Part shown: positions 1 through 53,439 of the stretch, piece by piece
How positions within the stretch are numbered: the first letter of the stretch is position 1
Layout of the letters: each line of letters opens with the position of its first letter
Assembly: GCF_964213995.1 (NCBI RefSeq)
Contig: NC_135805.1
Location: 145,204,001 to 145,268,000 of the forward strand
Length of the DNA: 64,000 bases
Reading direction: 5' to 3'
Origin: Mustelus asterias
Taxonomy: Eukaryota
Position numbers and translations under genes: made by a program
Notes under the pieces: model-generated
What the model was told of the DNA's origin: nothing
Database searches by the model: none
What the model saw: the letters and a program-made list of their open reading frames with translations, nothing else

Positions 1-725
<725 letters not shown>

Positions 726-3047: not shown

Positions 3048-3644
<597 letters not shown>

Positions 3645-10503: not shown

Positions 10504-11998
10504 CCCTCATGGCAGACTGGTGCAGAAGGTGAAGCCGTATGGGATCAGAGGTGAGCTGGCTACGTGGATACAAAACTGGCTCGGTTAGAAAAGATAGAGA
10601 GTAGCAGTGGAAGGGTGCATTTCTGAATGGAGGGTGGTGACAAGTGGCGTTCCTCAGGGATCAGTGCTGGGACCTTTGCTGTTTGTAATATACATAAATG
10701 ATTTGGAGGAAAATGTAACTGGATTGATTAGTAAGTTTGCAGATGACACAAAGGTTGGTGGATTTGCAGATAGTGATGAGGACCATCAGAGGGTACAGCA
10801 GGATATAGATCAGTTGGAGACTTGGGCTGAGAGGTGGCAGATGGAATTTAATCCGGACAAATGTGAAGTAATGGATTTTGGAAGGTCTAATACAAATAGG
10901 AAATACACAGTAAATGGCAGAACCCTTAAGAGTATTGATAGGCAAAGGGAACTAGGTGTACAGGTACACAGGTCACTGAAAGTGGCAATGCAGGTGGAGA
11001 AGGTAGTCAAGAAGGCATACGGCATGCTTGCCTTCATCGGCCGGGGTATTGAGTTTAAAAATTGGCAAGTTATGTTGCAGCTTTATAGAACCTTAGTTAG
11101 GCCGCATTTGGAATATAGTGTTTAATTCTGGTCGCCACACTACCAGAAGGACGTGGAGGCTTTGGAGAGGGTACAAAAAATATTTACCTGGATATTGCCT
11201 GGTATGGAGGACATCAGCTATGAGGAGAGGTTGGAGAAACTTGGTTTGTTCTCACTGGAACGACAGAGGTTGACGGGTGACCTGATAGAAGTCTACAAAA
11301 TTATGAAAGGCATGGACAGAGTGGATAGTCAGAAGCTTTTTCCCAGGGTGGAAGAGTCAATTACATGGGGGCACAGCTTTAAGGTGCGAAGGACAAGGTT
11401 TAAAGGAGATGTATGAAGCAGATTTTTTACACAAAGGGTATGGGTGCCTGGAACTCGTTGCTGTGGGAGGTAGTGGAAACAGATACGATAGCGACTTTGA
11501 AGGGGCGTCTTGACAAATACATGAATAGGATGGGAATAGAGGAATATGGTCCCCGGAAAGGTAGGGGGTTTTAATTAAGTCAGGCAGCATGTTGGTGATC
11601 GCTTCTCGGCCTTTTGGCTAAGATCAAGTGTAGTATGGATTGGATGCTGCACTTGGTTGAGGTCATTAGGTTACATTGAAGCTTCATATGTTTCATATGA
11701 AGCAATTTTTAAAAGCGGTATCTCGGCCTTTTGGCTAAGGTGCAAGTGAGCTCAAGTCTTGGAGGAGGTATTGCTTTCCCTCCTCCAATCAGCTTGGCTC
11801 ATGTAGATCAGGCCCAGGACAGGGTAAATGGTCGCTTGCCCTGTCTTGCCAGCCTGGATCGGAAATGTCTCAACTTGTTGAGACTCTGAATTGGACTTGA
11901 TTTGATTGAATTGGAAAAGTATAAAAAGAAGCATGTTGGTGCAGGCTTGGAGGGCCGAAGGGCCTGTTCCTCCGCTGTTTTTTTTTGTTCTTTGTTCC
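10504..11998 (+). mobile_element. CR1 LINE, 5'-truncated; its 3' UTR is interrupted by U2-headed element copy B
   Basis: ORFs 10607-11125 and 11153-11416 carry RT motifs ([18 protein letters not shown]). The tail resumes at 11930. Confidence 0.93.
11598..11929 (+). mobile_element. U2 snRNA-headed SINE-like element, copy B, with 12-bp TSD
   Basis: First 39 nt match the U2 5' end (atcgcttctcggccttttggctaagatcaagtgtagtat). A-rich tail. TSD agcatgttggtg at 11586-11597 and 11930-11941. Confidence 0.9.
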
Positions 11999-14759: not shown

Positions 14760-15137
14760 ATGCCTGAAGAAAAGAAACTCCAAACTGCCAAGAAGGGCGC
14801 CAAAAAGGCGCAGAAGAAGCCGGTAATGAAAAGCGGTAAGAGGAAGAGGAGGTCTAGAAAGGAGAGTTATGGCATCTACATCTACAAAGTGATGAAGCAG
14901 GTTCACCCCGACACCGGCATCTCCTCCAAAGCCATGAGCATCATGAACTCGTTTGTTAGTGATATCTTCGAGCGCATCGCGGGTGAGGCATCCCGCCTGG
15001 CCCATTACAACAAGCGCAGCACCATCAGCTCCCGGGAGATCCAGACCGCCGTGCGCCTGCTGCTGCCCGGGGAACTGGCCAAGCACGCCGTGTCGGAGGG
15101 GACAAAGGCGGTGACCAAATACACCAGCTCCAAGTAA
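14760..15137 (+). CDS. H2B: Histone H2B, intact
   Basis: 125 aa MPEEKK...[21 protein letters not shown]...KYTSSK. Stem-loop ggctcttttaagagcc at 15173-15188. Confidence 0.97.
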
Positions 15138-17230: not shown

Positions 17231-17680
<450 letters not shown>

Positions 17681-24288: not shown

Positions 24289-24609
<321 letters not shown>

Positions 24610-46490: not shown

Positions 46491-47795
46491 TATAATCAAA
46501 CCCATTCCGTTCAATACTGCTTCATTAATACTGCCCCACGATCTAATTTTCTTCCCACACTGCAGCTGAAATTCCCTGCAGTATTAGATCTTATGATTGT
46601 AGAATGTTGCAGAAGGGAAATTAGAAAGTCAGAAAGACATGGGGAGTTCTGTCTCGTGTTTTTAGTGGTTCCTTAGCAGCAGCATTGCAGCTCATCAGGG
46701 GCACTTTAAGAAAATGGTTGCGTGACATCATCGGATGTGACATCTTTGGCCAGTTGCTATTAAATCTTTGATAGCGCACTCAAGCATTTTCCTCATTACT
46801 GACGTCAGCTGTGCAGTAGAGGAATTGCTTGTCGTGTTAATACCTGCTGAATAAATCTTAATTTTGTTGAACCCCTGTGGCCTGCTAAAGTCAATCCTGT
46901 GAACACCACCAAAAACCGGCAATGAGGAAGTCCAATAACGTTTGCAGCCACGTGAAGGAGCCGAAAAATTGGGAGAAAGTAACTTTGTAGAGAAGCTCGC
47001 CACGTGCTTCACTGAAAACATATAGCATATAGATTGGGCGAATCAAATTCATAATACTGTAGAGGATGTTTTTCTGGATCAATACATTGAGAACCAACTA
47101 GAGAACAGGCTGGTGTTGTGTAATGAGAAAGGAATAATTGGCAATAGAGTGTGCAAGGCCTCTTGGGGATGAGTGACTAATATGACAGAATTCTATATCA
47201 AGATGAAGAGAAGTTGATTCTGAGACGAGGGTCCTGAATCTTAATAATGGAAATTACAATGTTGTGACACATGAGTTGGCTATGCTGGATTGGGGGATGT
47301 TACTTAAAGGGATGACGGTGAATATGCAATGACAAACATTCCAGGAGCACATGGGTGATCTGCAACAATTCCTTATTCTTGTCTGGTACAAAACTGAAAT
47401 AGGAATGATGCCAAACCATGGCTTACAAGGAAAATTAGAGATAGTATAAAAATTGCCCAGAGAAAAATGATAGACTGGTAATTGAGTGCATTTTAGATTT
47501 TGACAAAGCAGGATCAAGGGATTAATTAACAAAGGGAAAACGGGAGTACAGGAGTGAGCTTGCAGAGGACATAAAAACTGACAAAGTTTATGTGCTTAAG
47601 TCAAGAGAAAAAGATTGGGAAAGACAAATATAGATCCCTTACAGCCTGAAACAGGAATTTACAACTGGGGAATAGAAATGACTGACCAACTAAGTACGTA
47701 CTGTGGTCCTGTCTTCACAAAGGAGGACGCAAATAAGATAGCAGAACTTTCGGGGAACACAGGGTTTCTTGAGGGGGAGTAACTGAAGGAGATCA

Positions 47796-50700
47796 CTGAC
47801 AAATCCTTTAAATTTTAAAAATGTCTTTAAAGTTTGCATCTATAAATGTACGCAGCCATTAAAGATGGTCTGAGATGTGCGACCAGCTTGTCTTACCTGG
47901 CCAAGGTCAAGGCTGACCTGCTGTTCCTGTAGGAGTGTGGAATACCCTACCTCAACAACTACAGGTGCTGGTCGAGTGTGTGGTCCCACGGACCGTCCAT
48001 CTGGTCCGGTGGGAACGACTGCCGTTCCTCCAGCCTAGGCATTCTGCTGCGAGGAGGCAACTTCACCGTCTCCGAAGTTAAGGAGGTGGTGGGAGGACGC
48101 CTCCTCATAGCAGACGTCATGAACAAAAACTGCCCCCTCAGGCTGATTAATGTGTATGCGCCTGCCGTCAAGACCGAGCGGCTAGCACTTTTTGAACAGC
48201 TGCCACTGCTACTCACCACCTCCAGGCCAATCATACTGGGTGGAGATTTTAACTATTATTGACAAGGCCGGCCGACCCAACAGGGCTGAAAGAAAACTGG
48301 ACGCTACGTCCAGAGCCCTGCTGGAAACAGTCAAAGATGCCAAGCTGCTCGACGTCTGCAGCAACCCAGCAGACGGAGGGCAGCGTAGATACACGTGGTC
48401 GCGGCCAGACGGGTCTGTCCGCTCCAGGATCGACTTCATGTTTGCATCCCGCACGCTCACGGTCAGGTCCACCGATGTCAAGCCGGTGTTCTTCTCTGAC
48501 CACTGCCTCCTGCTGGTAGACCGTCAGCTGGAGGAAAACCAGAAAGTGGGCAGGGGGTCCTGGAAGCTAAATGTAGAACTGTTGATCCCAGAGAACCTCG
48601 AGGAACTCAAAGGGGTTTACCACGGTTGGAGGAGCGTGAAACCCTTCTTTGAGTCTTCATCACTCTGGTGGGAAACCATCAAGGGCAACATCAAGAGGTT
48701 CTTCATCCGCAAAGGGGTTCAGAAGGCCAGGGAGAGACGGGGGGGAAATGTCCCGACTCCAGAAAAGCATGCAGGAGCTACTCCAACTGCAGTTGATGGG
48801 GGGTGATGTCAAGGAGGATCTCTGGGAGGTGAAGAGCCAGCAAGCCTTGCTCTTTGCCTCGGAGGCCTCCAAGGTTATCTTCCGGTCCAGGGTCCGCTCC
48901 GTGGAGCAGGATGAAACGTGCTCACGTTTCTTCTTCCAGAAGGTGCACAGAGAAACCTCTGTGATCAGCAGCCTGAAGGAAGAAGATGGCTCTGTAAGGT
49001 CATCGCATTTGAGGATCTGCAAATCCTTCTATGCCGGACTGTCTGACCTGAAGCCAACAGACAGCACGGTCTCCCAGTCTTTCCTGTTGTCTATCACGCA
49101 GGTCTTAGACAACGGCGAGCGGGAGAGCCTGGACAGACTGGTAGCTCTGGATGAGCTGACAAAGGCCGTTGAGTCCCTTCAGAAGGGTAAAACTCCCGGA
49201 AGCGACGGCTTACCGGCTGAGTTTTATTCGGCGTTGTGGGACTTGACGGGCCTGGACCTCCTGGAAGTATACGAGAGTATGCTTCTGGAAGGCAGCATGT
49301 CAGAATCCATGAGGAAAGGCATCATTACCCTCATCTACAAGCAGAAGGGGGAAAGGGAAGAAATTAGAAATTGGCGACCCATTTCACTATTGAACGTGGA
49401 CTATAAAATTCTGGCCAAGGTCATCGCCAACCGGGTCAAGTCTGCTCTGGGGTCAGTGATCCATCCTGATCAAACCTGTGCTGTACCCGGCAGGGAGATC
49501 TCTGATCGTCTCGTGCTACTCAGGGGTACGATCGCCTACATGCAGGACAGGTGGGTGGATACCTGCCTCATCAGTCTACCAGGAGAAGGCGTTTGACAGA
49601 ATATCGCACAGCTACATGATGGATGTGCTCTCCAAAATGGGCTTTGGGGAGGGAATCCGCAATTGGATCCAACTGCTCTACACCGACATCAGTAGCGCAG
49701 TTTCAATCAATGGGTGGGAATCAGATATGTTTCAGATCAGGTCTGGAGTCAGGCAGGGCTGCCCTCTCTCCTCCATCCTTTTTGTGTGTTGCATTGAACC
49801 CTTTGCCGAGGCCCTCCGAAGCGACCCAGGCATCAAAGGGGTCACAATCCAAGGCAGCGGAGGCACGCAGGTCAAAGCCTCCTCCTACATGGATGACGTG
49901 GCTGTCTTCTGCTCGGACCCCTCGTCTGTTCGCAGGCTCCTCCAAGTCTGTGAGCAGTTCGAGCTGGCCTCGGGAGCCAAAGTCAACCAGGGTAAGAGCG
50001 AGGCCATGTTCTTTGGGAACTGGCCTGACACATCCTTTGTCCCCTTCACCGTCAGGGCCGACTACCTCAAGGTGCTGGGGATGTGGTTTGGAGCGGCAGG
50101 GGCATGCGCAAAAAACTGGGAAGAGCACATCGCCAAAACCAGGCAAAAATTGGGATTGTGGGAGCAACGCTCCCTCTCTATCACTGGAAAAAAACCTTGT
50201 GATCTGATGCGAGGTACTGTCCGTGTTGTACGTGGCGCAGGTGTGGCCAATCCCCAAGTCCTACGCAGCAGCAGTGACCCAGGCCATCTTTAAATTTATC
50301 TGGAGATCAAAGATGGATCGTGTCCGGAGGGAGGCGATGCACAAATCTCCAGAGAGCGGAGGGAAAAACGTTCCCAACGCCGCCCTCATCCTGATGGCCA
50401 CCTTTGTGTGCGGCTGCATCAAGCTGTGTGTAGATCCTCGGTACACTAACAACAAGTGCCACTATTTTTTGAGGTTCTACCTGTCCCAAGTGTTGCGGAG
50501 GATGGGTCTGGCCACATTGCCGTGGAACGCTCCCAGTAGTTGGACCGTACCACAGCACCTGTCCTTCGTGGAGAAATTTTTGACCACATGGCTATCAAGC
50601 AGTGGTCAGCACATAATGTCCTTGAGGCCCTGAGAGAAAAGGAGACGGCAGATCCTGTCGGATGGTTCCCTGAGCAGACTGTCAATGTCATCTGGCAGAA

Positions 50701-52005
50701 TGTCTCATCACCAGAACTCACAAACAAGCACCAAGACCTGGCTTGGCTGGTGGTGAGAAGGGCACTCCCCGTCAGATCCTTTATGCACGCTCGAGGTCTC
50801 AACCTCACCGCACGCTGCCCTCGAAGCGGGTGCGGGGGTGATGAGACGGTCGCACACCTCCTTGTGGAATGTGCCTTTGCAAAGAAGGTCTGGAGTGAGA
50901 TGCAGTGGTATTTGTCGCGGTTCGTCCCGGGCAGCTCAGTGACGCAGGACTCTGTGCTCTACGGGCTGTTTCCGGGGACGCACACCGAGACAAATATCAA
51001 CTGCTGCTGGAGGGTCATCAACTCGGTGAAGGACGCGCTTTGGTCCGCCCAAAACTTGCTTATCTTCCAGCTGAAAGAATTGTCCTCGACCAAGTGTTGC
51101 AGACTGGCACATTCCAAGGTCCAGGACTACGTGCTCAGGGACACGCTGAAGCTTGGGGCAGCCGCCGCAAAGGCACAATGGGGAAAGGCCACCGTGTAAA
51201 GCCTTTCAACCGAGACAGACCGAGGGCCCGGTAACTGCAGAATACCATCAGCCTGCGTAACTGTGTGCCAATCTGAAAAATAACAGCACACAGTAAACTC
51301 TGATGTATGTACATAGTTTTAAGTAATGAAATGTGGAAGAACATAGAAACATAGAAAAACTACAGCACAAAACAGGCCCTTCGGCCCCACAAGTTGTGCC
51401 GAATATATCACTACCTTTTAGGCCCACCTATAACCCTCCATCCTATTAAGTCCCATATACTCATCCAGGAGTCTCTTAAAAGACCCTATTGAGTTTGCCT
51501 CCACCACCACTGACGGCAGCCGATTCCACTCGTCCACCACCCTCTGTGAAAAACTTCCCCCTAACATTTCCCCTGTACCTACCCCCCAGCACCTTAAACC
51601 TGTGTCCTCTCGTAGCAGCCATTTCCACCCTGGGAAAAAGCCTCTGAGAGTCCACCCGATCTATGCCCCATAACATCTTATATACCTCTATTAGGTCTCC
51701 TCTCATCCTACGTCTCTCCAAGGAGAAAAGACCGAGCTCCTTCAGCCTATCCTCATAAGGCATGCCACTCAATCCAGGCAACATCCTTGTAAATCGCCTC
51801 TGCACCCTTTCAATCTTTTCCACATCCTTCCTGTAATGAGGTGACCAGAACTCGTGTAATGAATGTCATGTTTTGTAAATAAGCACTGTATTGTACTGTA
51901 AAAATGATTTTTTTTGCACTGTTTGTAACTTTTGGATCTGTCGTTTTGCAATGTTTTATTTGAGAGTTTTTTTAATGAATAAAGTATATTTTTGAAATAA
52001 AAAAA
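47796..52005 (+). mobile_element. Tx1-clade non-LTR retrotransposon: near-complete but frameshifted ORF2 (APE-RT-zinc knuckle), poly(A) tail, 15-bp TSD
   Basis: ATG at 47821 (MSLKFASINVRS), INVYAP, GGDFN, FFSDH, WRPISLLNVDYKIL, GVRQGCPLS, YMDDV, CPRSGCGGDETVAHL, stop at 51199, aataaa-A tail. TSD aactgaagga(g/a)atca at 47781-47795 and 52006-52020. Confidence 0.93.
51337..51851 (-). mobile_element. CR1 3' fragment inserted in the Tx1 3' UTR
   Basis: ORF 51476-51823 ERVQRRFTRMLPGL; tail (ttctatg)n. Confidence 0.9.
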
Positions 52006-53439
52006 AACTGAAGGAAATCAGCATTAGTGGAGAAATGGTGTCAGGGAATTTGATGGGATTGAAGGCAATAAAATCCTCAGGGCCTGACAATCTGCATCCC
52101 AGAGTATTTGTAAAGAAATGGCCTGAGAAATAGTAAATGCATTGGTTGTCAATTCTGGATTAGTTCCTACAGATTGGAGAGTAGCTAATGTAACCCCAAC
52201 ATTGAAAATGGGAGGGAGAAATAAAACAGAGAATTATAGTCCAGCCAGGCTGACGTCGGTAGTGGGGAAAATGCTCGAGTCTGCTATCAAAGATTTAATA
52301 GTAGTGCATTTGGAAAACAGTGGCAGAATCCGATATCTAGGGTGCCAGCTTTCCACAATGTATACTAATGATTTAGAAGAGGGAGCTAAATGTGATATCT
52401 TCAAATTTGCAAATGACACAAAGCTGCGTTTGGGGGAGGCGGGGGGATGGTGAGTTGTGAGGAGGATGGATAGAAGTTTCATTGTGTTTTGGACTAGCTG
52501 CGTGAGTGAGCGAATGAAATTCAGATGCAGTATAATGTTGATCAATGTGAGGTCAGCTACTTTGCTCGTAAAAACAGAAAGGCAGACTATCTGAAAGATG
52601 GGAATGTGCAATGAGACCTGGGTGTCCTCGTACACCAGTCACAGAAGGTCAGCAGCCAGGTGCAGCAGGCATTACATGGTATGTTGGCCTTTATAATGAG
52701 AGGACTCAAATCCTGCAGCAAGGATGTCTTGCTGTAATTATACAGGGCGTTGATAAGGCCATATCTGGAATATTCTGTGCAGTTTTCATCTCCTTTTCTG
52801 AGGAAGGATTTACTTGCTCTGGAGGGATTGCAGCAAGGATTTACTAGACTGGTGTTTGGGATGGCAGAATGAAGAGCGATTAAGTTGTTTAGGATTATAT
52901 TTACTGAAGTTGAGATGCATGGTGGTGGGGGGGGGAAGGAGGTTGTTCATGATGTTGGGGCAAGTCCAGAACCAGGGAATTCACGCTGAGGATACAGGGT
53001 AAACCTTTTAGGACAGAGATGAGAAGACATTTGTTTCGCCAGGTAGTGGTAAACCTGTGAAATTTGTACCACAGAAAGCAATTGAGGCAAAAGCATTGTA
53101 TATTTTCAAGAAGATGTTCGCTATAGCTCTTTGTTGCAAAAGGGATCAGAAAGTATGGTGCAAAGTTGGTATCAGGCTATTGAGTTAGATGATTAGCCAT
53201 GATCATGATGAATGATGGAACAGGCTCGAAGGGCCAAATGGCCCACTCTTGCTCTTATTTTCAATGTTTCTATGAAAAGTAAATCGATAGCCATAAGTAG
53301 GAAGTTCCCTGTCGCAACAAATTTGGAGTTGAGGGTGCTGTAAAACAGAAAATAGATGAAACCTCGGTTTGTGTCTTGTTTTGGAGAACGGAAATAAGGT
53401 AATGCTAAAAATTCGTGGCACACGTGGACTGATCCTTAA

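Follow-up and report, generated by a model that had tools for sequence, protein, structure and literature searches.

The closest described relatives of the element reported here are the SINEU families of crocodilians. According to the portions of Kojima (2015; PMC4494074) that characterize them, the families SINEU-1/2/3 are shorter than 500 bp, with a U2-derived head and a poly-A tail; they contain T runs internally, lack any internal promoter, receive 5' snRNA additions, form tandem copies that sandwich a target site duplication (TSD), and have a Tx1 partner of the Keno-related group. The shark element is alike in all these respects. How SINEU is transcribed without an internal promoter is treated as an open question in the Discussion of that paper (PMC4494074), and the section of PMC5381603 that deals with these families places them in crocodilians only. 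The LINEs Keno and Utopia have common 3' flanks that begin at U2 nt 39, and Keno carries an APE enzyme (PMC4640811, section 6). With Keno, as outlined in parts of PMC4494074 and PMC4640811, our element shares a 3' junction at U2 38/39, a similar AAAGTAT-T/A tail, U2 pieces at 5' junctions and insertion sites; yet it has no coding capacity, and Keno is not the origin of its body. More distant likenesses exist with R2 and the R2/R1 SIDEs of Drosophila (Eickbush 2012; PMC3414825, passages on SIDEs), where a non-autonomous element relies on a site-specific LINE and lives on the transcription of a multicopy host gene, and with U2 processed pseudogenes and U2/U6-L1 chimeras (PMC4494074, in the passages concerned), which likewise combine an snRNA 5' piece, an A-tail and a TSD. 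The main text of a paper on shark SINEs (PMC5499810) contains no snRNA heads, and no report of a shark snRNA-headed SINE was found in the literature searched, a body of work to which most subscription papers, Repbase and Dfam are external.

Here we follow up an initial annotation of a window of Mustelus asterias (the whole stretch of DNA analysed, 64 kb), which had proposed a U2 snRNA-derived SINE family on the strength of two copies, A and B (table 1).

Results

Both copies start at U2 nt 1, as had been proposed (window positions 88 and 11598, Rfam U2 matches), and copy B matches U2 for 39 nt, identical at 39/39 positions to a U2 gene of the same genome, before departing from it; copy A follows U2 up to nt 37, with two substitutions. 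The small divergence first read between them is borne out: 313/322 aligned bases are identical, and the 9 mismatches and 6 gap positions lie mostly in the first loop. The 12-bp TSD of copy B is exact. For copy A the proposed start stands and the end moves from about 426 to 428; no direct TSD was found at its junctions (1 base at most). We take the repeats that host them to be a tRNA-type SINE head (HE1-like) for copy A and a CR1-like 3' end for copy B, with which the sequence is compatible. The window also holds a replication-dependent histone cluster with five histone stem-loops; among the source-named best full-length matches of its H2B, most are shark, skate and ray proteins (89-96%).

Table 1. 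Features of the 64-kb window (positions within the window).
Feature	Position	Strand	Basis
Copy A 5' junction: 12 nt of the 3' flank (428-439), inverted	72..83	-	sequence
Copy A, full-length, youngest large subfamily	88..428	+	inside minus-strand tRNA-type SINE, without direct TSD
H2B fragment	450-725
H2A	2310-2696
H3	3048-3458
5' TSD of copy B	11586..11597	+	exact 12-bp repeat AGCATGTTGGTG
Copy B, full-length element with A-rich tail	11598..11929	+	sequence comparison, fold
Head, U2 snRNA nt 1-39: stem-loop I and branch-point recognition sequence	11598..11636	+	39/39 vs U2 gene; ends at Keno site
Antisense arm, pairs with U2 nt 11-39, 25 pairs including 8 G-U	11644..11672	+	fold
Hairpin 2, perfect 10-bp inverted repeat	11681..11703	+	fold
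Hairpin 3, second U2 stem-loop I (U2 7-33)	11718..11743	+	alignment, Rfam
Hairpins 4-6	11746..11889	+	fold; no significant Rfam family, no Keno match
3' end AAAGTAT and T/A-rich tail, about 10 nt like Keno 3' end	11913..11929	+	sequence comparison
3' TSD of copy B	11930..11941	+	exact 12-bp repeat AGCATGTTGGTG
H2B	14760-15137
H3	17231-17641
H4	24289-24600
Keno-type Tx1 LINE, dispersed, 5'-truncated, broken	47795..52007	+	88-93% to U2-inserted copy; 10-bp TSD-like repeat AACTGAAGGA

The body of about 290 bp had been described as unrelated to U2. The departure after nt 39 holds; the description holds only in part, since the ~330-nt element includes an antisense copy of U2 11-39 (element nt 47-75) and, at nt 124-151, U2 7-33 for a second time. 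Of the 12 differences that separate the antisense arm from perfect antisense, A>G or C>T changes account for 8. The Rfam match of the element to U2 1-192 is due to the head and not to a complete U2, and a search of the body against Rfam up to E 10 returned the second U2 piece and chance matches only; against the Keno copy the body gave no match. Copy B is predicted to fold into a chain of hairpins (-138.1 kcal/mol, z -7.62), the first of which buries U2 11-39 under the antisense arm; in two old copies the fold signal is gone (z -2.1 and -0.3). Variants common to at least 4 copies keep the pairing in 26/35 cases, against 35/157 for singletons, and the same holds for transitions (23/27 vs 34/67, p 0.002) and for transitions without A>G (15/19 vs 20/53, p 0.003), p values that are optimistic because the copies are related and the structure was taken from those same copies. 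A canonical Sm site (AATTTTTAAAAG) was not found in the element, and an Sm site or U2B'' loop hinted at by the Rfam alignment was rejected as non-canonical or not kept across subfamilies; hairpin 4 as a further antisense U2 was likewise discarded (score 23, null median 20).

The family extends far beyond the window. A 21-mer of the body, allowing at most one mismatch, has 6,290 matches in the genome and 0 in the reversed control, a floor because the 21-mer finds 123 of the 131 units collected and misses 8. Head plus arm, matched exactly, occurs 1,712 times, and a 25-mer of the young subfamily 214 times. That a U2-headed, ~330-nt retroposon family exists, with no fewer than 6,000 copies, is near certain. 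Across 40 consecutive loci of contig C1, picked on the body motif and not examined before, 31 start at or before nt 30, so that the U2 head is a kept part of the family and the body is not mostly found apart from it, and the other 9 are 5'-truncated or inverted; 24/40 have a TSD of at least 8 and the median identity to copy B is 89%. With head/body junction and body fixed and inherited across thousands of copies, the element is no simple processed U2 pseudogene, as had been maintained. The commonest 5' end is the exact U2 +1, at 19/91 loci and at 7/40 of the C1 loci. TSDs were detected in 45/86 independent, young-biased loci (the 91 minus 5 segmental duplicates, L016-L018, L064 and L104), where shuffled sequence gives a mean of 3.45 and a maximum of 7; their measured length, median 16, is inflated by micro-homology. 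The insertion site has C/T at -1 in 24/29 and A at +1 in 23/29, a loose Y|A(A/T); targets comprise U2 genes, the element's own copies and such loose Y|AW sites.

In a tree of the 131 units, with bootstrap not settled, several subfamilies with short end branches appear, and subfamilies share diagnostic loops. The type of copy A makes up 25 of the first 100 head-plus-arm matches listed, as judged by eye. Of the first 100 copies listed, 21 lie within 500 bp of another on the same strand (chance expectation 0.06-0.09%), and the tandem units are usually separated by a local TSD. That array neighbours are merely older was considered and rejected: many have short end branches and fall in other subfamilies. 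Several particulars deserve record. Array junctions lie repeatedly at element nt 29 (AAGTGTAGT), 9 bases before the Keno site (L010, L023, L051 and L204); one subfamily has a longer first loop with a ~10-nt insertion (L184, L186, L202, L214 and L217); at G000:C1:82.75 Mb three head-plus-arm matches with a 117-bp period mark local tandem amplification of the 5' part; and 5' inversions resembling twin priming occur at L029, L100, L106, L213, L197 and L218, a possible route to the antisense arm. In a survey of sequence records, 15 of the 20 rows listed had a word share of at least 0.2, coming from coded organisms A-G in six studies, one of them possibly the source, no more than a hint of relatives; the other five (0.06) are no evidence.

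The true U2 genes of this genome form tandem arrays on contig C24, and inside these arrays lies a LINE with a ZCCHC3/zinc-knuckle ORF1, APE, RT and zf-RVT domains (Pfam). Its 3' flank is U2 38-191, with the junction at U2 nt 38/39 (a boundary of 38 or 39 depends on A38, which merges with the A-tail), and a homologue is named TX1 149 kDa protein; on domains, U2 3' flank and this homologue we assign it to the Keno type. One copy has an intact ORF2 of 1,135 aa. The Keno 3' UTR yields 906 candidates; among the best 40, the C24 U2 arrays account for 17. U2 followed the dispersed Keno 3' end at 0/13 dispersed loci inspected, so the specificity of Keno appears relaxed, as it is for the element; the Keno family of this genome, most of whose copies lie outside U2, thereby differs from known Keno (PMC4494074 and PMC4640811, passages on Keno) in also inserting widely outside U2. 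Keno 3' ends and the element occur together on one target site or TSD at L021, L104, L056, L208 and L247, their tails have only ~10 nt in common, and Keno is also found fused to U2 1-33 behind the spacer of the C21 variant U2 unit. Tx1 mobilisation, suggested earlier as L1/Tx1-type from TSD length, is supported and can be narrowed to the Keno-type family by the common U2 38/39 site and the mixed arrays. Keno is very likely the main mobilising partner of the element, judging from these shared sites; as the comparison covered Keno-type LINEs only, some of the mobilising could fall to a different LINE. Another repeat breaks into the window's own Keno copy close to its 3' end. At G000:C24:44.81-44.94 Mb (L038-L043, L113-L127) there are ~15 near-identical units of 8,035 bp, each with an intact U2 gene and a Keno copy into which a ~350-bp SINE and a headless U2 intrude; this Keno is a dead copy amplified with the array.

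The element itself sits inside U2 genes. Its tail followed by U2 38-51 was found in 12 rows, equivalent to 10 junctions at 9 loci, with 0 in the reversed control; seven of these junctions belong to clear full copies, two to fragments and one has no BLAST-level element, and two further U2 junctions carry small mutations. At G000:C24:43,060,550 the element lies in the last gene of a U2 array, where the upstream unit is intact, identical to an array unit at 1,812/1,827 positions; the order there (C24:43.06 Mb) is U2 1-39, element, A-tail, U2 38-56, Keno piece, U2 38-53, second element, U2 38-191. The promoter-adjacent copy is a deleted variant, 77% identical to copy B, for which no close dispersed match was found among 114 units (best ~80%). 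At G000:C21:28.06 Mb the element occupies a variant U2 unit (175 bits) whose upstream spacer is 98% intact, and in this 448-bp unit Keno and the element are inserted at the same base. The surrounding region (C21:28.05-28.08 Mb, L168-L176) carries a variant U2 that is ~90% identical to the main U2, with a different upstream region and heavy Keno invasion; five copies of the variant unit match the exact pattern.

Dispersed copies carry the trace of such genes. At L163, a TSD-flanked copy consists of U2 12-52, 93 nt of the C21 variant U2 upstream spacer and the element, a 5' end that would fit a truncated copy of an RNA begun in a U2 gene; L162, L164 and L165 have most of the variant spacer in front of the element, the TSD being established for L163 only. 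These spacer-linked transductions come from a search aimed at them: for sources behind the main U2 promoter, 1/6 matches was true, and behind the variant spacer 6/6. The 10 copies found embedded in U2 or linked to the spacer include no copy-A-type member. Extra U2 pieces that end at nt 46-57, a pattern blind to later junctions, precede 28 copies; 16 are TSD-enclosed, the junctions are variable, and promoter DNA was seen in 0/28. They fit either template switching or the copying of nested sources. In L239 (1515-1520), the five bases in front of a dispersed head match those with which the main U2 upstream region ends, a match that may be chance.

No A/B box and no tRNA were found in the element, and TTTT runs occur at nt 15, 109 and 132. 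Lacking an internal promoter, it is a SINE only in the loose sense in which Kojima uses the word for SINEU; the "snRNA-derived SINE" of the initial annotation survives as a U2-headed multicopy retroposon and not as a SINE in the strict Pol III sense. An octamer was not found upstream of the main or the variant U2 type. One (ATGCAAAT) occurs at element nt 141, which in arrays places it ~200 nt upstream of the unit that follows; a self-made promoter built on it was set aside, as no PSE-like match was seen by eye. Among the full-headed copies compared, no common 5' flank but the element's own tail was found.

Probable RNA editing offers an indirect sign that the element was transcribed and double-stranded. 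ADAR edits produce clustered A>G changes and prefer a 5' U or A. Among rare changes in 114 copies, A>G exceeds T>C (125 vs 53, p 8e-14), and does so without three hyper-mutated copies of the 131 (53 vs 36, p 0.001; G>A vs C>T, p 0.78). In those three, 22, 29 and 13 of 76 adenines are changed, some of the sites being subfamily variants; the A>G rate by 5' base is 0.54 for T, 0.35 for A, 0.16 for C and 0.16 for G (p 1.6e-5). The pattern is typical of ADAR and points to editing of an RNA intermediate on the sense strand; we found nothing specific on ADAR-edited retrocopies in the literature. The A>G pattern of L103 is repeated in its duplicate L104. Within one TSD, L103/L104 contain an element, a U2 head, an inverted A>G hyper-mutated element and a headless element, with a Keno 3' end in L104.

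Discussion

Our findings suggest a model in which Keno ORF2 would prime on the AAAGTAT-A-rich tail of the element RNA. Most of the resulting insertions would fall at loose Y|A(A/T) sites and be promoter-less dead ends; a few would enter U2 nt 38/39, where gene nt 1-37 would join the RNA head by homology, and Pol II starting at U2 +1 could then make complete element RNA. The head likely represents target flank, which would explain why it ends at the Keno site, and as it stops at the insertion site, any insertion into a U2 gene would rebuild a full element behind a promoter. Turnover of source copies inside the U2 arrays would give rise to subfamilies, while the antisense arm would fold the U2 head away and duplex RNA would sometimes be edited by ADAR before being copied. 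Transcription from the U2 promoter of invaded genes, with U2-embedded copies as sources, is on balance the probable origin of element RNA; the variant promoter is a candidate, and RNA running on into U2 38-191 would need trimming or internal priming. Taken as a whole, Keno copying joined to such transcription appears a reasonably likely account of the genomic evidence.

Is this family simply SINEU? Orthology with crocodilian SINEU-1, horizontal transfer of that family, or a prior entry in Repbase or Dfam would find some support in the sections of PMC4494074 according to which SINEU-1J combines a short U2 head with a unique body and Tx1-Mar clusters with Keno. The same sections report no SINEU outside crocodilians and give Mariner-N4, not U2, as its target; with no shark report found in the literature searched, we regard each of these possibilities as doubtful. 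Of the SINEU traits, ours has the U2 head, the short, non-coding, poly-A multicopy family derived from masters and, on genomic evidence, the Tx1 LINE with shared targets; the preference for Mariner-N4_AMi and the crocodilian host are missing. By comparison with SINEU as presented in those parts of PMC4494074, the element resides in a shark, has over 6,000 copies with young subfamilies, enters U2 genes at the Keno site instead of Mariner-N4, has a head that is fixed at the point of insertion and base-paired to an antisense arm, and offers genomic evidence for sources at the U2 promoter. It is probably independent of crocodilian SINEU, from which it is set apart by description and not by body alignment.

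The origin of the RNA admits another reading. The same family and the same Keno/Tx1 partner could take their RNA from host or LINE transcripts that read through, or from tandem arrays, the U2-embedded copies being sinks. The youngest large subfamily has no U2-embedded source among those found, any subfamily can land in U2, none of the 114 units is a close dispersed descendant of the C24 copy next to the promoter, and flank transcription was suggested by Kojima for SINEU (PMC4494074, in the part on its expression). Read-through, however, predicts 5' transductions, and no common 5' flank but the element tail was found among the full-headed copies compared; those transductions that the targeted search did find carry U2 upstream spacer, and the preference for an exact U2 +1 end (19/91; 7/40) speaks against it as well. 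We consider read-through rather unlikely.

Far less credit attaches to amplified retro-pseudogenes of a host-encoded structured ncRNA, be it a variant snRNA or a regulator of U2. The strong fold (z -7.6), the common variants that keep pairing and the copy behind a U2 promoter would suit it; yet there is no single conserved parent locus, the many short-lived subfamilies change their loops, the U2-embedded copies show the insertion mark of an A-tail followed by U2 38 onward, no canonical Sm site is present and Rfam recognizes U2 pieces only, so that we judge it very improbable. Finally, independent U2-LINE chimeras made by template switching without a master are largely refuted and scarcely credible: although the 28 copies with extra U2 pieces and variable junctions make switching to U2 RNA likely here, the head/body junction is fixed, a body arm is complementary to the head, the body has no Keno match and is not seen running into a longer upstream LINE (40 C1 loci), and diagnostic loops are common within subfamilies.

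Returning to U2-embedded sources copied by Keno, the head might serve as an address and not as a promoter: the 5' flank of the partner's target, giving seamless U2 re-entry, promoter takeover and homing by RNA-DNA homology, with an antisense arm evolved to hide the branch-point sequence from the spliceosome. The tandem excess (21/100 copies, >200-fold over chance) may be cited for homing; as a whole this remains a tentative idea that we hold to be possible and somewhat short of probable, and that the arm shields splicing from the U2 head is speculation.

Set against the other known systems, SIDEs are, in the passages of PMC3414825 on them, internal deletions of a LINE with a ribozyme and reside in rDNA, whereas the element is a new chain of hairpins, mostly dispersed, with no body match to the Keno copy and no ribozyme family in Rfam; given a start at U2 +1, it would require no cleavage at its 5' end. 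In the corresponding passages of PMC4494074, processed pseudogenes and U2/U6-L1 chimeras arise singly and their junctions vary, in contrast to a junction and a body inherited over thousands of copies.

An snRNA-headed element is thus caught in U2 genes at the site of its partner, and the loci named here bear on the question of how SINEU is transcribed. The A>G pattern would preserve, as a fossil does, RNA editing that was copied back into DNA, and the compact cargo RNA of a U2-targeting retrotransposon may be of interest for site-specific insertion tools. If independent, the element would represent a second vertebrate origin of snRNA-headed SINEs, and the genome that hosts it also holds a partner ORF2 with its coding sequence intact. 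If crocodilian SINEU arose likewise, snRNA-headed SINEs would be a recurring by-product of U2-targeting Keno elements.
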